Source of the DNA: a virus
Lineage: Duplodnaviria; Heunggongvirae; Uroviricota; Caudoviricetes
Virus record (IMG/VR): IMGVR_UViG_2568526635_000006
Span: 1-20,485 of that record
Strand: one strand, 5' to 3'
DNA length: 20,485 nucleotides
Part shown: piece by piece, positions 8,426 to 19,832 of the stretch
Layout: the number at the start of each line of letters is the position of its first letter
Numbering within the stretch: position 1 is the stretch's first letter
Made by a program: the position numbers and the translations under genes
Notes under the pieces: generated by a model
The model's input: only the letters and a program-made list of their open reading frames with translations
Databases searched by the model: none
Told to the model about the DNA's origin: nothing

Positions 8426-11400
8426 CTATATTTTTCCGCCTACGCCTTTAAACTTCTCAATAAACGAGACGATTTTCTGGAAAACTGCCTGTTTTTTCGT
8501 TTTATATTGCGGATTTAACGGACTAAGTTTTGGTAATGTTTCGTTTAATTCTGTGCCATTTTCGGTGGCATATTCGCGTTTTAAAGACGTGCGAATATAG
8601 CGTTTTGCTGCATCTTCATTGAGATTTTCTTCTTTTATCAATGCTTCTGCTTCACGTTGCTGTTCGCGTTGAGCAAACGTAAAGAATGCGTCAATGATGC
8701 TGGCTTTGTCCGGTAAATCATCCAGGTTCGTTTGCTGAATAAAATCGACCACCAGGCCCTCTTTAGCACGGTTCCCTAGGCTTGAACGAATTAAGCGTTT
8801 GACCTCTTCGATCATTTCGCCCTTGCCTTTATTTTGTCTGTTGTGTTCGAAAATCAGTCCAAGGATATAATCCAGGTTTATTTCCTGAGACTTCAGCAAA
8901 TCGACCTCAAAAACTACGTCATCCCAGTCAGTGGTTGATTTCTCTTTTTTCTCAGCTTCTTTCTCACGGCGCCGCCAGTCGCGAATATCGTTATAGGCAG
9001 AACGATAATCCTGAATCTTGCGATCAGCAGGGAGACGAATTGTTTGCAATTCAGCGAACTTTTCATTATCCACATAATGTTCTGCTTTGAATTTTTCTAC
9101 CGCAACAGGATCGCTAAGATCGATTTGTTGCAGGGCTTTTAGCGTGGCAAATTCATCATAGTTTTGCAGGATGTTCTCGGCACGCAGGTATTCGCCAAAC
9201 AGTTTAACGAAGTCTTTCTTCTCTTTTTCACTTTCAATACTGGTAGGGTCAGGGAACCGTTGTTCCAGTTCTGAAACTACTGTCATGAAGCCGCGTTTAG
9301 CTTCACCAGTAGCAGCATCAGTAAAGCCTTCCATATACTCTGTATAACTCTTTTCTAATACCACATTTTTGGTGTTTTTGTCACCAAACAGCGTTATGGC
9401 ATCAATAGTTGAGCGTTCCAGATCCCGGAACGTGACGATATTACCGAAGGTTTTAGTCGAGTCATAAATGCGGTTGGTGCGGGAGAATGCCTGCATCAGG
9501 CCGTGAAAACGCAAGTTTTTATCGACGAATAGCGTGTTTAATGTTGGAGCATCGAAGCCGGTTAAAAACATTCCCACGACAATTAACAGATCGATATCCT
9601 GATTTTTAACCCGTTGGGCTAAATCACGATAGTAGTTCTGAAAACCGTTACTGTCGGTGCTAAAGTTAGTTTTAAAATGGCTGTTATATTCACGAATTGC
9701 AGCGTCCAGAAACTCTTTAGCACTGCTGTCCATTGCGCTGGTATCAAAAGTTTCATCGGAAATTTCACCAATGGCATTTTGTTCTTCATTGGCGGCAAAG
9801 GAGAAGATTGTCGCAATACGCAGCGGTTTATAGGTAGCCGATTTATTAGCGGCTTCTTCTTGTAACCGTTTAAACGTCGCATAATAGGCTTTCGCGGCAT
9901 CCACGCTGCTCACTGCCAACATAGCATTAAAACCTTTTGAGCCAGGGAAGGTACGGTGGGTTTTCTGGCGGAAATTATTCAGGATATATTGCGTGATTTC
10001 CTGAATACGCATGGGATGAAGAAACGCCTGCTGATTTTCAGCCGCACTCAGTTTTTTCTCGTCAGTTTCTGTCTCTAAAGACTTAAACTGTGGCCGCACA
10101 TCGTTGTAGTCCACCTTGAATTTGAGCACTTTTTCGTCACGAATCGCATCGGTAATTACATACGAATGCAATTCACGACCAAATACGCTGGCGGTCGTTT
10201 CTGAGCCTAAGGCATTTTCCGGGAAAATAGGGGTGCCGGTAAAACCAAACTGATAATAGCGTTTGAATTTCTTCTTCAGGTTTTTCTGCGCTTCTCCAAA
10301 CTGGCTGCGGTGGCATTCATCAAATATAAACACCACTTGCTGATTGTATACAGGCAGGTCGCTTTCTGCTTTCATCAGGTTATTAAGTTTCTGAATAGTG
10401 GTGACGATAATTTTGTTATCGTCCTTATCCAGATTTCGTTTAAGACCTGCGGTATTTTCCGAGCCGTTGACGCTGTCTGGCGAAAAACGCTGATATTCCT
10501 TCATGGTCTGGTAATCGAGGTCTTTCCTGTCGACCACGAAGAAGACTTTATCAATAAAGTCCAGTTCAGTTGCCAGACGCGCGGCTTTAAAGCTGGTCAG
10601 TGTTTTACCGGAACCAGTGGTGTGCCAGATAAAGCCACCGCTTTCGGGGTTAGACCAGTTTTTCGCTTTATAGGAGCTGTTGATTTTCCATAAGATCCGT
10701 TCGGTAGCTGCAATCTGGTACGGTCGCATCACCAGTAGCGTCTGACTACTGTCAAACACGCTGTAGTTCACCAGAACATTAAGCAGGGTATGTTTCTGGA
10801 AAAAGGTAGCGGTAAAGTCTTTGAGGTCTTTAATCAGCGTGTTGTCTGATTTCGCCCAGTTCATGGTGAAGTCAAAACTGTTTTTATCGCGCTTTGTCGT
10901 GTTGGCAAAGTAACGGGTATCGGTGCCGTTGGAAATGACAAACAGTTGCAGATACTTAAACAGAGAATTTTCGCTGTTAAAACTCTCTTTGCTGTAACGA
11001 TGTATCTGGTTAAAGGCCTCACGAATCGCCACGCCGCGCTTTTTCAGTTCGATTTGTACCAGCGGTAAGCCATTAACCAGGATCGTGACGTCATAACGGT
11101 TAGCATGAGAACCCGTCTGTTCAAACTGCTGGATAATCTGCACCTTGTTGCGCATGAGATTCTTTTTATCTATCAAATAGATGTTCTCAAGACGCTCGTC
11201 ATCAAAAATAAAGTCGCAAATATAGTCGATATGGATTTTACGGGTCTTATCCAGGATGCCATCGCTCGGGTTATCCAGATACTGCTCCGTGAAACGCCGC
11301 CATTCGCTGTCATTAAACACCACACCATTGAGGTTCTGAAGCTGTTCCCGAACGTTGGCCAGCATCGCCGACTGAGATTTTACGGAAATAAATTCATAGC

Positions 11401-11542
11401 CCTGATTCCGCAGATCCTGAATCAGTTCACGTTCCAGGTCCGATTCGCTCTGGTAGCTGTCGCCTGTTTGCTCGGCTTTGATGTACTTATCAAGAACGAT
11501 AAAGTTATTGGATTCAGCAATGGTGTGTGTTTGATGAGTCAT
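8426..11542 (-). CDS. hsdR: Type I restriction enzyme R subunit (HsdR), 1038 aa
   Basis: SF2 helicase motif [14 protein letters not shown] and motif [12 protein letters not shown]; N-terminal PD-(D/E)xK-like nuclease region ([18 protein letters not shown]). ATG preceded by AAAGGA. Confidence 0.92.
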
Positions 11543-11663
11543 AGCGCATCCTTTGTGCCGTCTGGCAAGGGCCGGAAGGGCTTTAAGGGCGACTTCCGGC
11601 GTGTAAAAAATAGTCTCTATATAGACCGGATGTTAAGGTGATCCGGTCGGTAGCAATGGTCAA
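11543..11663 (-). promoter_or_regulatory. hsdS-hsdR intergenic region with two stem-loops; probable separate hsdR promoter and partial terminator
   Basis: Inverted repeats GACCGGAT-n9-ATCCGGTC (11624..11648) and GCCGGAAG-n14-CTTCCGGC (11571..11600), with a T-run on the minus strand between them. Confidence 0.35.
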
Positions 11664-12932
11664 TTAGTTACTGATAGTTTCAGGTTTGGGAAAACTGAAC
11701 AGTAAATCACGATAGTACTCGTATTGTTTCTGGCGCAACTCGATTTCACGCGGAAGACCTTCGGTGATGGAATTGGTCAAAGCATCAAATTTATCCAGTA
11801 ATTTCACTATTTTTTGTTGTTCAACTAGCGATCTTTCAGGAGAATCAGGAAATGGTACTGGTATCATAAGTTTTCTTAAGTTATCATTATAAAGTCTTTT
11901 AATAGTTCCACCTTCAGATATTCCCCATTTTGCTATTTTATAGAAATAGAATAAATATTTATTTAAAACTATTTTTTCATTATTTTCAATCCAGACAATA
12001 TTGCTATCCTGGAAATATGATTCCCTACCATCAAATATAACAGTCCTGCCGATGGTCCCACTGGCAGAAATCAATACTTCGCCAACTTTAGGATAACTAT
12101 ATTTTTCTTTAAATTCATTAAATAGTTTTCTAGATATATAGGAATCGGGTTCCTTACCAAATGTCCCAATTTTATAAAATGGAATCTCTCCCTCAGAAGA
12201 TGTTTGTGATTTTAGGATTCGTTTACACATACGAACTTCACCAATTTCCCCCAAAGCTTTCCACTCAACCTCACCCTCTTTAAAACTCAACAACTGGTCG
12301 CGATAGTAGTTGTATTGTTTTTTACGCATGCTAAGCTCAGCGGTAAGCTCAGCGGTAAGTGCAGTAAATTTGTCCAGAATCCGAACGATTTCAGACTGGA
12401 TGGCTAGGGACTTTTCCGGGTTGTCCGGGCAGGGTAATGGGATTTTGAATCTTCCCATTACGGCTGAGTTCAAGTTGTTAATGGTTGAGCTATTCAACAT
12501 TTCATCAAGATATTTTTGGAAAATATCACTTGTTAAAACGTGAAATAAATAACGTGGATTTAATTTTTCATCGCATCTGACGACCCCCATAAATCCGCCA
12601 AAGTAGTAGTCAATATCAGATTCTATGTAAGCAACTTTACCGACATGTTCACGGCTACCACTTGCTGCGCTAATTAGAATGTCGTTCTTATATAGCTTTT
12701 GCGAACTCTTTACTTTGGTGTCGAACCTCACCACCTTGACATCATTTAAATTTAAACAATTATTAGACAGCGTGATATTGTTAGCGCGAAGCACTTTATA
12801 GCCTTGACCATCCGCGCTTTCACTCGATTTGCTATAAATTAAACCACGTACATATTTTGCGACTTCTCCGAGAGTCTTCCACTCAACCTCAACCCCATCC
12901 AGCAATTTTTCCAGATAACTCATCTCGCTCAT
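11664..12932 (-). CDS. hsdS: Type I restriction-modification specificity subunit (HsdS), 422 aa, EcoR124 (type IC)-like
   Basis: Two AT-rich variable target-recognition domains separated by a conserved central region ending [26 protein letters not shown], with a C-terminal repeat [16 protein letters not shown]. Start overlaps the hsdM stop (ATGA). Confidence 0.9.
12333..12368 (-). repeat. Tandem 12-bp codon repeat encoding TAEL-TAEL, with a degenerate third unit TAL, in the HsdS central conserved region
   Basis: Plus strand AAGCTCAGCGGT x2 (12333..12356) followed by AAGTGCAGTAAA. Minus-strand codons ACC GCT GAG CTT x2. Confidence 0.8.
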
Positions 12933-14491
12933 TTCTGCACCTCGCAGCCTTCAATTTCAGCCACAATCGCATCAATATCTTTACGCAACTGGTCGATTTT
13001 GCTGACCGTGGTTTTCAGCTCAGCATTCAGCTCAGCGATATCGATAATTTCGCGAGTATCTTTCGCTTCCACATAGCTGCTCACCGACAGGTTATAGTCA
13101 TTCGCGACAACAGTCTCAAACGCAACAGATTTCGCCAGATGAGCAACATCTTCCTTGCTGGCAAATACCTGCATAATCTGTTCGATATGAGCATCGGTCA
13201 GAATGTTGTTGTTAGTCTCTTTTTTGAACAGTTCGCTGGCATCAATAAACTGAACTTTGGTATCCGTTTTATGTTTAGACAGCACCAGAATATTGACGGC
13301 AATAGTGGTGCCAAAGAACAGATTCGGTGCCAGTGAAATCACGGTTTCGACATAGTTATTGTCGACCAGATACTGACGGATTTTCTGCTCCGCGCCGCCA
13401 CGGTAAAAAATGCCTGGGAAGCAGACAATCGCAGCGCGACCTTTGGCCGAAAGATAGTTCAGCGCATGTAATACAAACGCAAAGTCAGCTTTGGATTTGG
13501 GGGCCAGAACGCCAGCCGGGGCAAAACGTTCATCGTTAATCAGCGTCGGGTCATCGCTGCCAATCCATTTCACCGAATACGGCGGGTTAGAAACGATGGC
13601 GTCAAACGGTTTTTCATCTCTGAAGTGCGGCTCAGTCAGTGTATTACCCAGCTTGATATCAAACTTGTCGTAGTTGATATTGTGCAAAAACATGTTCATA
13701 CGCGCCAGGTTATAGGTCGTATGGTTGATTTCCTGACCGAAAAAGCCTTCTTCGATGATGTGGTTATCAAACTGTTTTTTCGCCTGCAACAACAGTGAGC
13801 CGGAACCCGCTGCCGGGTCGTAGATTTTGTTAACGCTGGTCTGCCCGTGCATAGCCAGTTGTGCAATCAGCTTGGAGACGTGCTGCGGTGTAAAGAACTC
13901 ACCGCCTGACTTACCGGCATTTGCCGCATAGTTAGAAATCAGGAACTCATAGGCATCACCGAACAGGTCAATCTGATGTTCGTTGAAGTCACCAAGTTTT
14001 AACCCTTCAACCCCTTTCAGAACCGCAGCCAGGCGGGCATTTTTATCTTTAACGGTGTTACCCAGGCGGTTACTGGTGGTATCGAAATCAGCAAACAAAC
14101 CTTTGATGTCAGCTTCTGAAGGATAACCGTAAGCAGAACTTTCGATAGCAACGAAGATGCTGTTTAAATCTGCATTCAGTCTGTCATTAGTATTTGCTTT
14201 CGCAGCTACGTTGCAGAAAAGCTGACTGGGGTAGATGAAGTAGCCTTTAGTTTTGATGGCATCGTCTTTAATGTCATCAGTAATTACGCTGTCATCCAGT
14301 TTCGCATAACAGATACTGTCATCACCGGCTTCAATATAACTGGAAAAATTTTCGCTGATAAAACGGTAGAAAAGTGCGCCCAGAACGTATTGCTTAAAAT
14401 CCCATCCATCGACCGAACCCCTGACATCGTTAGCAATTTGCCAGATTTGACGATGAAGCTCTGCACGTTGTTGAATACTTGTCATTTTCAT
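12929..14491 (-). CDS. hsdM: Type I restriction-modification N6-adenine DNA methyltransferase (HsdM), 520 aa
   Basis: AdoMet-binding motif [11 protein letters not shown] and catalytic motif IV NPPYS; typical HsdM N-terminus. First gene of the minus-strand hsdMSR operon. Confidence 0.92.
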
Positions 14492-14630
14492 CCACTTATT
14501 TCAGGCTTATGTAATTGGCGGTGATTCTACAGCAACTTGGATGCTTTAGCAGTTCGGACATTAGGTAACGAATGACCTGCCTAGAGGTTTGTTAAGACGC
14601 AAAGTGCTGGTGCTTTATGCCTGTGAAGTT

Positions 14631-14660
14631 TATAATTGTGTACACATAACGAGTACACGA
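14631..14660 (+). promoter_or_regulatory. phd-doc promoter -10 (TATAAT) with palindromic autoregulatory operator half-sites
   Basis: TATAAT at 14631..14636, then TGTGTACACA and GAGTACAC palindromes immediately upstream of the RBS GAGGTG. Consistent with Phd/Doc autoregulation at palindromic operators. Confidence 0.5.
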
Positions 14661-14667
14661 GGTGTTT

Positions 14668-14889
14668 ATGCAATCCATTAACTTCCGTACCGCGCGCGGC
14701 AACCTTTCTGAAGTGCTCAACAATGTTGAAGCCGGGGAAGAGGTTGAAATCACCCGCAGAGGCCGTGAGCCAGCAGTAATTGTCAGCAAGGCTACTTTTG
14801 AAGCCTACAAAAAAGCGGCGCTGGATGCTGAATTTGCATCCCTGTTTGACACCCTGGACTCCACCAACAAGGAACTGGTTAACCGATAA
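14668..14889 (+). CDS. phd: Phd antitoxin (Phd/YefM family), 73 aa
   Basis: Product [49 protein letters not shown]... matches my recollection of phage P1 Phd essentially residue for residue. The track ORF begins 6 nt upstream at a GTG. Stop overlaps the doc start (TAATG). Confidence 0.9.
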
Positions 14890-15269
14890 TGAGGCATATA
14901 TCACCGGAAGAACTTATTGCGCTTCATGATGCGAATATAAACCGCTACGGCGGCCTGCCGGGAATGTCAGATCCGGGTAGGGCAGAGGCCATTATCGGGA
15001 GAGTTCAGGCCAGAGTTGCCTACGAAGATATCACCGACCTTTTCGAAGTCTCCGCCACCTACCTGGTGGCTACTGCGAGAGGGCATATATTCAATGATGC
15101 CAATAAGCGTACCGCGCTAAACAGTGCGCTGCTATTTCTACGCCGTAACGGGGTGCAGGTATTTGATTCACCAGAACTGGCAGACCTTACCGTAGGGGCT
15201 GCGACCGGAGAGATATCTGTATCTTCTGTCGCCGACACGTTACGTAGATTGTATGGTTCTGCGGAGTAG
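14889..15269 (+). CDS. doc: Doc toxin (Fic-fold kinase, death on curing), 126 aa
   Basis: Fic/Doc motif [12 protein letters not shown]; length and sequence match recalled P1 Doc. Confidence 0.9.
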
Positions 15270-15273
15270 ATTA

Positions 15274-15453
15274 ATGGCACGTAAATACAACAAATTGTCC
15301 CGTGAAGCGTTAAAGATGCTTCTTGATGGCGTGAGTCGCCGCGAGGTAAAGCAATACCTGGTTGGTAAGCAAATTGGTGCCAGGACAGCTATTGCTGTGT
15401 TATGCCGTCAGGAAATGGTTGTGCTTAAACAGAGAATGCCGGGCAGCAGATAA
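15274..15453 (+). CDS. Small hypothetical protein (59 aa from ATG 15274; the track ORF starts at 15253)
   Basis: ATG 7 nt after GGAG, just after the doc stop; basic product. By position it may correspond to one of the P1 post-doc (pdc) genes. Confidence 0.4.
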   Translation: MARKYNKLSREALKMLLDGVSRREVKQYLVGKQIGARTAIAVLCRQEMVVLKQRMPGSR

Positions 15454-15480
15454 AGCCCAATCAGTGATTAAAGGTGTGAT

Positions 15481-16524
15481 GTGAAAGCCGTAATTACTCC
15501 CTTTGTACAGAAAGAGCTTGGCCTCGCCACGTTCAAAGTGGATCAGGAGGTCAGAAAGCTGGTGGAGGCTGGCCGTAAATTTATTATGGAGCCGGTGCCG
15601 CGTGAGTTAATCGAGCACATGGACGACGGCCTCGTTGTTTCCGAGCAAACTATGGCAACAAATGAGGCGTTGCAGCCGTTTTTTAACAGCGATGAACTGT
15701 TTCGCCGTATTGGTGGAATTGACGCGCTGGTGGCGTGGTTGCGTAGGAAAGAGGGTCAATGCCAGGCCGCAGATCGTAGTTGGTGTGACAACCATATTGT
15801 CCACGCTGAACGAGACAATAGCGCGGTGTTGTTGTGCTGGCATCACGATAACCATTATCGGATGCGTGGTTTTAATGAGCTGAAAGAAACGCTGCACAAT
15901 AATCGCGTTAACTGGATACTGGATGTCGCCCGTCAGGAAATGGGCCTTTCAAATAGCCATGATTTAAGTATTCAGGAGCTGTGCTGGTGGGCTTTCATGC
16001 GCAACATGATGCACCTGATGCCGGAAGAAGTCTGCCGCATATCAATAAATAAGATGAAGGCTACTCCGCAGGATAGCGGACCTCTGAAAGAGGCGGATAT
16101 TCGCCCGTATGACGATCGCGCTACAGCATATGTTCAGATGATGGAAGAACGCGCCGCGCCGATGCGTGCAAAAGTATGCCCTGTGGATGTTGACTCCGAC
16201 CCAGGTATGGCGCATTTCAAGATACCAAAACTTCAATCGCTAAAATTGCCCGAGTACATGGACTTTGTGGCTTCCCGTCCATGCTGTGGCTGTGGAGCTG
16301 CGGGAGCTGGCGCTCACATTACGCCTTATATCGTTCGTCATAGTCGATTATGCGCGCATGACATTTATGCTATTCCTCTGTGCCAGTCATGCCAGCGTGA
16401 TATTGAGCGTGACCGCGATAATTGGGAGAAGACGCACGGTAGGCTGGCGATGCATCAACGATTGTTCTTTGATTACGCGCTTGGAGTCGGCGCTATCACA
16501 AGTCATTCGTCGAGTGTTAGATAA
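15481..16524 (+). CDS. Hypothetical 347-aa protein with two Cys/His-rich clusters (putative zinc-binding, possibly nuclease-like)
   Basis: GTG start after AAGGTG. Clusters [15 protein letters not shown]...CWHHDNH and [13 protein letters not shown]...RHSRLCAH...CQSCQ. May correspond to a P1 pdc gene by position. Confidence 0.55.
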
Positions 16525-16525
16525 A

Positions 16526-16567
16526 ATTGCTCTAATGTATTGCTATTTCTTTAATCTAGGGTATTAT
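16526..16567 (+). promoter_or_regulatory. C1-operator-like site overlapping a sigma70-type promoter upstream of the lpa-like gene
   Basis: ATTGCTCTAATGTATTG (14 of 17 to consensus) at 16526..16542 overlaps the -35 TTGCTA (16540..16545); 16-bp spacer; -10 TATTAT (16562..16567). In P1, gene 10 (lpa) is known to be C1-controlled. Confidence 0.5.
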
Positions 16568-16612
16568 ATTCGACGTTGATTAGTTGACATGGGCTAATCA
16601 GTAGGTGACAGG

Positions 16613-17065
16613 ATGTTACTTAACTGGCAGGGACGCCACTTCATGGAAATAAATCACTCACGAATAACATCGTACGAGATTGCGGATTACATGATCCGCA
16701 CTAAATCTCTTCTATCAGCGAAAGAACTCGCAGCAATTCTTGAAAAGGAATACCCGCATCTGGATGTCGATAAGCGCGATGTTTATCTGCGCTTAAAGGC
16801 TATCGCTGTGTCTAAGTATTCGTCTGTTTTGATTGATGACAGTACACGCCCACGTAGATTTCAGATCCACTCTCTGAATCCTGAATTCTTTCGCCGCAGT
16901 CGCGCTCCGCGCCGGTTTGATGAAAAACTCCAGAACGAACTCTATATGACGCAGGACGAAAAGGAACGCCGGGAGCACCAGCCTTGGGTAATGGCGCGTC
17001 AACTTTTCAATAAGGTGGTCCGTCAGCACCGTCATTACGGTAATGCCACATCCGCACGTATCTGA
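16613..17065 (+). CDS. lpa: Putative late-promoter activator (Lpa / gp10-like), about 140 to 150 aa
   Basis: Assigned by synteny (directly upstream of pacA, downstream of phd-doc) and by the C1-operator-controlled promoter, not by recognised sequence. Alternative start ATG 16643. Confidence 0.5.
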   Translation: MLLNWQGRHFMEINHSRITSYEIADYMIRTKSLLSAKELAAILEKEYPHLDVDKRDVYLRLKAIAVSKYSSVLIDDSTRPRRFQIHSLNPEFFRRSRAPRRFDEKLQNELYMTQDEKERREHQPWVMARQLFNKVVRQHRHYGNATSARI

Positions 17066-17151
17066 TTGATTGCTTGCCCGTTCCGGGCCTTTTGACATGT
17101 GACTTTCGTTACCCTCGCGTCAAAAAGAGTTTTATACGAAAGGAAGCATAA

Positions 17152-18345
17152 GTGACCTGGGACGATCACAAGAAGAATTTTGCTCGCCTGGCGCGAGATG
17201 GTGGTTACACCATCGCACAATATGCCGCCGAGTTTAATCTCAACCCAAACACCGCACGTCGTTATCTCCGTGCATTCAAAGAAGACACCGGAACAGCGGA
17301 CAGCCGTAAGCCAAATAAGCCTGTCAGGAAACCACTAAAAAGCATGATCATTGATCACGCTAATGATCAACGTGCAGGTGATCACGTTGTGGCTGAAATG
17401 GCTGAAAAACAAAGAGTTAATGCTGTTGTCAGTGCCGCAGTCGAGAACGCTAAGCGCCAAAATAAGCGCATAAATGATCGTTCTGATGATCATGACGTGA
17501 TCACCCGCGCCCACCGTACCTTACGTGATCGCCTGGAACGCGACACCCTGGATGATGATGGTGAACGCTTTGAATTCGAAGCTGGCGATTACCTGATAGA
17601 TAACGTTGAAGCGCGGAAGGCCGCGCGCGCTATGTTGCGTCGGTCCGGGGCCGATGTTCTGGAAACCACACTTCTGGAAAAGTCTCTTTCTCATCTCCTT
17701 ATGCTGGAGAACGCCAGGGATACGTGTATTCGCCTGGTGCAGGAAATGCGCGATCAGCAAAAAGACGATGATGAAGGTACTCCGCCTGAATACCGTATCG
17801 CGAGCATGCTAAACAGCTGTTCCGCGCAGATAAGCAGCCTGATCAACACCATTTACAGCATCCGGAATAACTATCGAAAAGAAAGCCGGGAGGCGGAAAA
17901 GCACGCTTTGTCTATGGGGCAAGCTGGCATTGTTAAGCTGGCATACGAACGAAAGCGTGAAAATAACTGGTCAGTGCTGGAAGCAGCTGAATTCATCGAG
18001 GCGCATGGCGGGAAAGTGCCGCCCCTGATGCTGGAGCAAATCAAAGCCGATCTGCGTGCTCCTAAGACAAATACCGATGATGAGGAAAGGCAAACTGCCG
18101 TCGGTGGCCCTTCTCTTGAAGATCTGGACAAAGTTGCGCGAGAACGGGCCGCCAACCGCCGCGCCGATGCTGCATTGTGGATTGAGCAACGTAGGGAAGA
18201 AATCGCCGATATCGTTGATACAGGCGGTTATGGAGATGTTGATACTGAAGGTGTATCAAACGAACCATGGCTGGAACAAGACCTGGACGAAGACGAGGAG
18301 GAAGACGAAGAAGTTACCCGCAAGCTATACGGGGATGATGATTAA
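17152..18345 (+). CDS. pacA: Terminase small (pac-recognition) subunit PacA, 397 aa
   Basis: GTG start 5 nt after AGGAAG. The P1-type pac site lies inside the gene, the length matches recalled P1 PacA, the C-terminus is acidic, and the stop overlaps the pacB start (TAATG). Confidence 0.85.
17344..17503. other. P1-type pac (packaging initiation) site inside pacA
   Basis: About 160 bp holding seven GATC-containing hexamers in a 4+3 arrangement: TGATCA x4 at 17345..17384 and TGATCG/TGATCA/TGATCA at 17475..17503, separated by about 90 bp. Each hexamer contains a Dam site. Confidence 0.85.
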
Positions 18346-19829
18346 TGGCCAGAAGTTGCGTAACGGATCCACGTTGGCGCGAGCTGGTGGCGCTATATCG
18401 TTATGACTGGATTGCTGCCGCTGATGTTTTGTTCGGCAAAACACCTACCTGGCAGCAGGATCTGATTATTGAGTCTGTGCAGGAACAGGGTAGCAAGACA
18501 TCTGTTTCGTCTGGTCACGGTACCGGGAAATCAGACATGACTTCTATCATGATCATGTTGTTCATAATCATGTATCCCGGTGCCCGCGCCATTATCGTTG
18601 CGAACAAAATTCAGCAGGTAATGACCGGTATATTCAAGTACATCAAGATAAACTGGGCTACTGCCACCAGCCGTTTTCCATGGCTTGCTGATTATTTTGT
18701 TCTGACAGAAACCGCTTTCTATGAGGTTACTGGTAAAGGTGTATGGACTGTAGTACCGAAGGGCTTTCGTCTGGGAAGTGAAGAAGCTCTCGCCGGTGAA
18801 CACGCAGATCATCTTCTGTATATTATCGATGAAGCCTCCGGTGTCAGTGATAGAGCTTTCGGTATCATCACCGGTGCTCTTACCGGACAGGATAACCGCA
18901 TCTTATTACTGTCACAGCCTACACGCCCAAGCGGCTATTTCTACGATACTCACCATAAACTGGCCAAGCGTCCTGGTAACCCTGATGGCGTTTATACGGC
19001 GATCACGCTTAACAGTGAGGAATCACCGCTGGTAACGCCAGCATTTATCAAAATGAAGCTGGCGGAGTACGGCGGGCGTGATAACCCTATGTACATGATT
19101 AAGGTACGCGGACTATTCCCTAAATCACAGGATGGCTTCCTTCTTGGACGTGATGAGGTTGAACGTGCGACGCGGCGGAAAGTCAAGATTGCCAAAGGAT
19201 GGGGCTGGCTTGCATGTGTGGACGTTGCTGGTGGTACGGGACGGGATAAGTCCGTTATCAATATCATGATGGTGTCCGGCCAGAGAAATAAACGCCGTGT
19301 AATCAACTATCGAATGCTGGAATACACAGACGTTACAGAAACGCAGCTTGCCGCCAAAATTTTCGCAGAATGTAATCCTGAGCGATTCCCAAATATCACC
19401 ATAGCGATAGACGGCGATGGGCTGGGTAAAGCAACAGCGGATCTGATGTACGAGTATTATGGTATTACCGTACAGCGTATACGCTGGGGTAAAAAGATGC
19501 ATAGCCGTGAAGATAAGAGCCTGTACTTTGATAAACGTGCTTATGCCAATGTTCAAGCCGCAGAGGCCGTAAAATCTGGTCGTATGAGACTGGATAAGGG
19601 TAATGAAACTATTGAGGAAGCGTCGAAAATCCCTGTAGGGATTAACTCCGCAGGTCAATGGAAGGTGATGAGTAAGGAGGATATGAAGAAAAAACTCAAC
19701 CTGCACTCACCAGACCATTGGGATACATATTGTTTCGCTATGCTGGCGGATTATGTTCCCCAGGATGAAGTGCTTAGCGTCGAAGACGAAGCGCAGGTTG
19801 ATGAAGCTCTGGCATGGCTTAATGAATGA
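18345..19829 (+). CDS. pacB: Terminase large subunit PacB, 494 aa
   Basis: Walker A-like [13 protein letters not shown] and Walker B-like [11 protein letters not shown]; length and position after pacA match P1 PacB. Confidence 0.88.
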
Positions 19830-19832
19830 ACA

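Follow-up and report, generated by a model that had tools for sequence, protein, structure and literature searches.

A two-copy TAEL array as a probable length-variable specificity switch in the type IC restriction-modification cassette of a P1-like phage-plasmid

Introduction

Can a restriction-modification system carried by a phage-plasmid acquire a new DNA specificity by gaining or losing a single 12-bp repeat unit? This question is raised by hsdS, the specificity gene of a type I restriction-modification cassette found in a 20,485-nucleotide stretch of Caudoviricetes DNA (IMG/VR record IMGVR_UViG_2568526635_000006, positions 1 to 20,485), hereafter referred to as the window. An initial interpretation of the window, the sequence-only reading, had drawn attention to a tandem repeat of the tetrapeptide TAEL in HsdS and had compared it with the repeat that distinguishes EcoR124I from EcoR124II. 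Here we propose, with a probability of roughly 0.8, that the window comes from a P1-like phage-plasmid bearing a complete type IC cassette of the EcoR124 kind, in which the two-copy TAEL array acts as a length-variable specificity switch.

The precedent invoked by the sequence-only reading, namely that two versus three TAEL repeats correspond to an N6 versus an N7 spacer in EcoR124I and EcoR124II, agrees with the literature (PMC3874165, PMC10644984). EcoR124I has two TAEL repeats, recognizes GAA N6 RTCG and methylates adenines located 7 nt apart, whereas the three repeats of EcoR124II, EcoDXXI and EcoprrI are associated with an N7 spacer and adenines located 8 nt apart (PMC3874165). Engineered hybrids changed specificity exactly as predicted (Loenen et al., PMC3874165), and deletion of one TAEL from EcoR124II led to the restriction of different T5-like phages (PMC10644984).

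Results

The TAEL array of HsdS

Read in coding-strand orientation, positions 12333-12368 on the minus strand of the window consist of TTT ACT GCA CTT (ACC GCT GAG CTT)x2, which encodes F-TAL-TAEL-TAEL in frame. The two tandem ACC GCT GAG CTT units and the degenerate TAL unit reported initially are thus exact in both coordinates and content. The array is bordered by a TTT codon (F) at 12366-12368 and is followed by AGC ATG CGT (S-M-R). Tandem Repeats Finder delimited a repeat at 12332-12359 (period 12, 2.3 copies, 100% matches) whose score of 56 is the best in the window; the CTT of the TAL unit and the A that follows the array keep the same phase, which brings the periodic stretch to 28 bp. 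The lag-12 run comprises 16 consecutive self-matches, the longest observed for any lag between 4 and 60 across the 20.5-kb window; 200 first-order Markov simulations gave maxima of 12 for runs at lag 12 and of 13 for runs at in-frame lags (3-24). In the EcoR124 HsdS chain 7bst_A, a segment is homologous to the TAL-TAEL-TAEL region residue for residue, which excludes a chance repeat. This chain is labelled 'EcoR124II specificity protein' yet contains two TAEL repeats, the EcoR124I state, and such names therefore do not track repeat number.

A phmmer alignment to 7bst_A revealed that residues 1-21, 160-231 and 371-422 of the window HsdS are nearly identical to those of EcoR124, with both target recognition domains (TRDs) divergent. 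The array lies in the central conserved region, which forms helix D1 of the antiparallel coiled coil holding the two TRDs apart. The LDKF...LLSF segment of D1 spans 32 aa, and the partner LDKF...LFSF segment of the D2 helix spans 36 aa. With one, two or three TAEL units the D1 segment measures 28, 32 or 36 aa, respectively, and is symmetric with D2 only at three units, which agrees with the optimum of three repeats given in the literature (PMC3874165).

Natural alleles with one, two and three units

Comparison of related isolates revealed natural alleles with one, two and three units at this locus that are otherwise identical, as expected of a switch of the EcoR124I/II kind. The idea that the locus can gain or lose one unit is hence borne out at the sequence level. 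The three-copy hsdS is located on plasmid unnamed3 of E. coli C-SRM-3 (NZ_CP123199.1, L001) and contains one extra ACCGCTGAGCTT, for a length of 1281 bp and 426 aa. Among the matches listed by the protein search, two proteins of 418 aa each, P0018 and P0019, have a single copy. P0018 is encoded in three NCBI assemblies (GCA_018194215.1, GCA_038075655.1 and GCA_035823715.1; loci L003-L005), in a P1-like context as in the window. Besides the 12-bp indel, blastn alignment to the window detected 0 mismatches in hsdM, hsdS and hsdR of L003 and L004, and 0 mismatches in hsdM, hsdS and the compared 253 bp of hsdR of L001; L005 has 2 mismatches in hsdR. The backbones that carry the one-copy allele differ from each other: 809 bp of neighbouring sequence (phd-doc flank) contain either 0 or 10 mismatches, which suggests either more than one deletion event or recombination of the backbone.

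The codons surrounding the array are informative about the origin of the three-copy allele. L001 keeps the private codons GAC AAA before the array and AGC and CAA after it; at those sites, GAT AAA/AAG, AAC or ACC, and CAG are found in the other three-copy genes examined. Since private codons are kept on both sides, the extra unit in L001 appears to have arisen in situ rather than to have been imported.

In a collection of 15 billion sequences, 235 contigs encode the two-copy protein and 3 the one-copy protein. Exact look-up in the same collection returned no 0-, 4- or 5-copy version of this protein, and no three-copy version was found among its proteins either.

Copy number in E. coli and beyond

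We estimated the copy number of type IC genes at large using a 241-bp probe covering the central region, sampling 60 rows evenly down the ranking of matches; copies were deduced from alignment spans, and the values were verified in nine loci whose sequence was read. The protein search was not used for this survey, as its top 120 matches were skewed toward the copy number of the query (105/120 two-copy). The probe matched 1,259 of the 5,426 complete E. coli genomes, about a quarter of them, and some genomes contain several type IC hsdS sequences, in up to 6 places. Two copies were found in ~31 of the 60 sampled rows (~53%) and three in ~25 (~43%); five and six copies were observed once each, and no one-copy array occurred in this sample of complete E. 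coli genomes.

The five-copy (NZ_CP075469.1, 4077173-4079221) and six-copy (NZ_CM129869.1, 4108953-4110963) alleles are chromosomal hsdS genes, and in both cases the adjoining hsdM is annotated as a pseudogene lacking its N-terminus. This organization points to growth of the array in systems released from selection. A second allelic pair is found on IncF plasmids, where pMB2855_1 (NZ_CP103743.1, from sequence type ST131) has three copies and pEC276_1 (NZ_CP018952.1) has two, with 0 mismatches between their hsdS genes apart from TAEL number. Both states of this pair occur in many complete genomes (6 and 9 of the 60 sampled rows); in pEC276_1, hsdR is truncated.

Among 185,579 species-representative genomes, none was found with four or more perfect units, and three or more units were detected in 11 species, including members of Erwinia, Pantoea, Serratia, Comamonas, Simplicispira and Giesbergeria. 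Betaproteobacteria of the genera Comamonas, Simplicispira and Giesbergeria (L018, L019, L021 and L022) and several Enterobacterales share the 36-nt three-unit string exactly, down to the codons. Such sharing across orders suggests that the conserved region of type IC systems has recently spread by horizontal transfer.

Another perfect 12-bp tandem occurs in hsdM (13014-13036, minus strand), where GCT GAG CTG AAT / GCT GAG CTG AAA encodes AELNAELK in the C-terminal helix. We ruled it out as a second length switch, given that its length was constant in ten loci, which together cover hsdS arrays of one to six units; across these loci the hsdM tandem exhibits point substitutions only.

Membership in the type IC family

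According to the cited literature, HsdM and HsdR of type I systems exceed about 70% similarity inside a family and fall below about 30% across families. HsdM of the window is identical to EcoR124 HsdM (7bst_D) at 517 of 520 positions (99.4%), and the type IA HsdM of EcoKI scores just 65 bits against it. HsdR aligns to EcoR124I HsdR (2w00_A) across residues 1-1038 with 2285.6 bits. Tandem repeats of four amino acids (TAEL, LEAT, SEAL, TSEL) in the central region are characteristic of type IC (PMC10030836), and HsdS of the window contains two perfect TAEL units and the degenerate TAL at residues 190-200. HsdS also displays the type IC succession of a conserved N-terminal segment, TRD1, central region, TRD2 and C-terminal region. 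The genes are arranged in the order hsdM-hsdS-hsdR, with hsdM and hsdS coupled through a 4-nt overlap and hsdR separated from hsdS by 121 bp, and the cassette has P1-homologous flanks; this organization is that of type IC systems of mobile elements. The proposed type IC assignment was thus upheld by the HsdM identity, the full-length HsdR match and the near-identity of the conserved HsdS regions to EcoR124, and the system is classified as type IC by every sequence criterion tested. Families of this kind were first delimited by genetic complementation and by cross-reacting antibodies; given the near-identity of HsdM and HsdR, complementation with type IC members would be very likely.

The HsdM start annotated in RefSeq lies 6 nt downstream of the first ATG (518 aa), a difference that concerns positions 14486-14491 of the window. 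The 520-aa open reading frame (MKMTSIQQ start) matches the crystallized HsdM of EcoR124 residue for residue, beginning at position 1.

Predicted spacer and target recognition domains

Published type IC enzymes with a 7-nt interval include GAC N5 RTAAY, GCA N6 CTGA and CAAA N6 RTCA (Table 1 of PMC3874165). The same interval can therefore be written with N5 or N6, and what the number of TAEL repeats fixes is the distance between adenines rather than the count of N. With two repeats, the methylated adenines of the window system should be 7 nt apart. An N6 spacer is the most likely, and N5 is possible, as the absolute N count is not set by repeat number; an EcoKI-like half-site for TRD1, with a base 3′ of the methylated adenine, would make the spacer N5. 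The N6 target that had been predicted from the two repeats thus remains the likeliest value but is not a necessary one, because N5 fits the 7-nt interval as well and the TRDs differ from those of EcoR124I. TRD1 shares 30% identity over 150 aa with the N-terminal TRD of EcoKI (E = 5e-12). We dropped an AAC half-site for TRD1 based on this likeness, which is too weak for such an assignment.

Both TRDs recur with other partners. TRD1 is paired with other TRDs in 15 of the 120 homologues listed, and among the matches listed TRD2 occurs at 90% identity or more in at least 75 other HsdS with a different TRD1. This recurrence corresponds to the ordinary modular shuffling of the type IC family. The complete hsdS is found at 100% identity in 13 complete E. 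coli genome records; E. coli QEC11-421 is one carrier of the two-copy allele.

A sequence identical to TRD1 over 142 aa (100%) fills the C-terminal TRD slot in four HsdS proteins (P0078, P0117, P0118 and P0119), whose central region ends with ...LLSFDEEQEKPIYLEKL, a junction resembling that of the N-terminus. TRDs may therefore move between both positions of the subunit.

Comparison with known systems

The closest characterized relatives are the EcoR124 enzymes. They share with the window the gene order, HsdM (99.4%), a full-length HsdR match, the conserved regions of HsdS and the 12-bp unit itself, which the primer sequences given in PMC10644984 match, and they offer the same picture of natural alleles one unit apart. 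In contrast, both TRDs are unlike those of EcoR124I/II, so the half-sites of the window system are predicted to be other than GAA and RTCG. The residue following the array is S in the window and N in EcoR124, and the replicon is a P1-like IncY phage-plasmid instead of R124. The window locus also has a natural one-copy allele.

Set beside the window by their descriptions, EcoDXXI and EcoprrI share the type IC family and the TAEL repeat, but have three repeats, N7 targets and other TRDs. EcoDXXI is flanked by P1-homologous DNA with the same two junctions, one following pap and the other preceding phd-doc; EcoprrI contains an embedded prrC anticodon nuclease gene that is lacking in the window. 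NgoAV of Neisseria gonorrhoeae, likewise a type IC system, is the best documented parallel, in a natural population, to this allelic series: its natural isolates carry differing numbers of LEAT repeats in the central region of HsdS, each repeat adding 1 bp of spacer, and the motif determined by PacBio shifts from GAC N6 TGC to GAC N7 TGC (PMC6789123). NgoAV differs by its LEAT repeat and register, in which one repeat corresponds to N6, by a poly-G frameshift switch, by its chromosomal location and by its distant host.

The P1/P7-like mcr-1 plasmids pMCR_SCKP-LL83 and pMCR-1-P3 have the same cassette at the same position, and hsdS of pMCR-1-P3 is 100% identical. In the parts of the corresponding publications available to us, the annotation comprises M, S and 'EcoR124II R protein' genes beside pap/pmgS and doc, and these portions of the text do not mention the family, the specificity or the TAEL repeats.

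The P1-like context

Alignments by blastn identify the window as part of a P1-like phage-plasmid. Positions 61-8350 correspond to positions 76193-84482 of P1 (NC_005856) at 98.0%, and positions 14592-19831 correspond to P1 87970-93207 at 92.6%. The 3.5-kb segment of P1 that the cassette replaces contains pmgT-pmgU-pmgV-upfM/N/O-hot-lxr-humD, so that the element is devoid of the P1 humD (UmuD-like) and hot (Pol III theta) functions. The pmgT-humD segment is a recognized hypervariable region of P1-like phage-plasmids. The annotation of the P1 reference flags homology to the flanks of EcoDXXI and R124/3 hsd at the junctions 8350/8351 and 14591/14592, and a link between P1 DNA and type IC hsd genes was published by Tyndall et al. 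in 1997, as cited in PMC12707154. Identical hsdS genes are found on IncY plasmids of ~93-133 kb such as pMCR-1-P3 (KX880944), in which the cassette lies between pap/pmgS and phd-doc-pdcB-lpa-pacA-pacB-c1. The features of the window are listed in Table 1.

Table 1. Coordinates of the type IC cassette, its genes, the predicted HsdS domains and the repeat units in the window.
Feature	Position	Strand	Description
Type IC hsd cassette	8351-14591		6,241 bp; not in phage P1, replaces P1 pmgT-humD (P1 84483-87969)
hsdR	8426-11542	minus	1038 aa, motor/nuclease subunit; Pfam HSDR_N, SWI2_SNF2, T1R_D3-like, EcoR124_C
hsdS	11664-12932	minus	422 aa, intact; two Methylase_S stretches (Pfam); start overlaps hsdM end by 4 nt
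C-terminal conserved region (D2 helix) and stop codon	11664-11837	minus	residues 366-422; nearly identical to EcoR124 HsdS C-terminus
TRD2 (C-terminal)	11838-12239	minus	about residues 232-365; aligns weakly with EcoR124I TRD2
Central conserved region	12240-12455	minus	about residues 160-231; nearly identical to 7bst_A residues 139-210
TAEL unit 2	12333-12344	minus	ACC GCT GAG CTT, HsdS residues 197-200; DNA same as unit 1
TAEL unit 1	12345-12356	minus	ACC GCT GAG CTT, HsdS residues 193-196; either this unit or unit 2 is missing from the one-copy alleles (L003-L005) and duplicated in the three-copy allele (L001)
Degenerate unit TAL	12357-12365	minus	ACT GCA CTT, HsdS residues 190-192
TRD1 (N-terminal)	12456-12869	minus	about residues 22-159; unrelated to EcoR124I TRD1
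hsdM	12929-14491	minus	520 aa, N6-adenine methyltransferase subunit; Pfam N6_Mtase, HsdM_N
phd-doc addiction module	14668-15269	plus	P1-like backbone; divergent from hsdM

Discussion

How could the array operate as a switch? In the mechanism that we propose, the D1 helix containing the TAEL array would pair antiparallel to D2 and thereby set the distance and twist between the two TRDs. The 28-bp in-register stretch would provide a substrate for slipped mispairing or unequal crossing-over, each event adding or removing exactly one 12-bp unit with the reading frame kept, and each unit gained or lost would lengthen or shorten the spacer by 1 bp, such that a new specificity would emerge from unchanged TRDs. 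The original literature considered unequal crossing-over, but with homology so short, slippage that does not require RecA would be no less plausible. We infer the activity of the system, the predicted change of spacer and the molecular route by which units are gained and lost. A cell could survive a sudden change of specificity given two properties described in an EcoSal Plus review: owing to assembly-limited restriction, type IC systems gain entry to naive cells efficiently, and the EcoR124I methylase has no preference for hemimethylated DNA.

Could the system instead be silent, either unexpressed or inactive, with changes in repeat number drifting neutrally and leaving specificity unaffected? 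Decay of type IC loci is common, as the five- and six-copy alleles adjoin a truncated hsdM and the IncF allele of pEC276_1 adjoins a truncated hsdR. In the window, on the contrary, hsdM, hsdS and hsdR are all full length, and HsdM and HsdR match the characterized subunits of EcoR124. The operon also exhibits 100% nucleotide identity over many plasmids that differ in host and country, and the tandem in hsdM never varies, which indicates that variation in hsdS is specifically tolerated or selected. We therefore regard silence of the system as unlikely.

Marginally less likely still is that copy number changes when the gene recombines homologously with, or is converted by, a second type IC hsdS of the same cell, such as a three-copy chromosomal or IncF allele, in place of slippage or crossing-over within the gene. 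Partners for such an exchange would be available, type IC hsdS being found in about a quarter of complete E. coli genomes and in up to 6 places in some of them, and recombination in the conserved regions has clearly exchanged TRDs among alleles. However, the private markers of L001, both synonymous and non-synonymous, flank its array so closely that a conversion tract would have to fit wholly inside the repeat, and there is no other mismatch anywhere in its hsdM or hsdS.

That the array is a fixed part of the coiled coil and that its one- and three-copy versions are sequencing or assembly artefacts is very improbable: although the three-copy allele of this HsdS comes from a single record and is absent from the 15-billion-protein collection, and the one-copy alleles come from draft assemblies, the one-copy allele is present in three separate assemblies with differing flanks, a different source provided P0019, a near-identical one-copy protein, each difference is a whole 12-bp unit that preserves the frame within a 36-bp region spanned by any short read, many complete genomes contain the IncF alleles in either state, and EcoR124I/II constitute an experimentally proven precedent (PMC3874165).

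Several observations weigh against a length-variable specificity switch in this cassette. The two-copy form is dominant, with 235 contigs versus 3-4 one-copy contigs and 1 three-copy record, and the one- and three-copy variants could be rare, possibly deleterious or transient mutants rather than states of a switch in use. Some change in copy number reflects relaxed selection, as illustrated by the five- and six-copy alleles located next to hsdM pseudogenes. In the one-copy form, D1 is 8 aa shorter than D2, and such a form would be only putatively functional among EcoR124-type proteins. Both TRDs differ from those of EcoR124I, so that the N count is not fixed by the repeats alone. Finally, a search of the literature for a published methylome or recognition sequence for this HsdS or for P1-like plasmids yielded annotation-level mentions only, and PMC12255300 proved to deal with Aeromonas veronii. 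We consider it doubtful, if conceivable, that natural populations of P1-like phage-plasmids contain arrays shifting among one, two and three copies, with all three states being active enzymes whose spacers are N-1, N and N+1.

Phasevarions, the phase-variable type I systems, rely on long tracts of simple-sequence repeats that switch expression ON/OFF or alter specificity, reversibly and at high frequency, inside a clonal population. The array of the window consists of just 2.3 units of 12 bp and one allele is strongly dominant (235 contigs versus about 5). Every change in copy number is in frame, which makes ON/OFF switching impossible. Atack et al. put forward effects near the TAEL tract as no more than a hypothesis.

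The mechanism and its association with P1 were already known. What appears to be new is an uncharacterized combination of TRDs and the natural occurrence of one operon in versions with one, two and three repeats. A further addition is the rough estimate that two copies and three copies alike are frequent in the type IC genes of E. coli. It follows from the abundance of both states that transferring motifs between HsdS proteins by TRD identity alone mis-assigns the spacer unless repeats are counted.

The operon, identical but for its one, two or three units, offers a natural series that could be used to test how helix length is converted into DNA spacer length, and this series includes the asymmetric one-copy case. 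A structural review described the accommodation of the register shift as "not clear". The carriers of this operon are P1-like phage-plasmids that also spread mcr-1 and blaCTX-M. If all copy states were active, such an element could re-key its restriction-modification identity against rival phages and plasmids without any exchange of TRDs; the range of the EcoR124-type ruler would then extend below two repeats, and the switch would be operating on a temperate phage.

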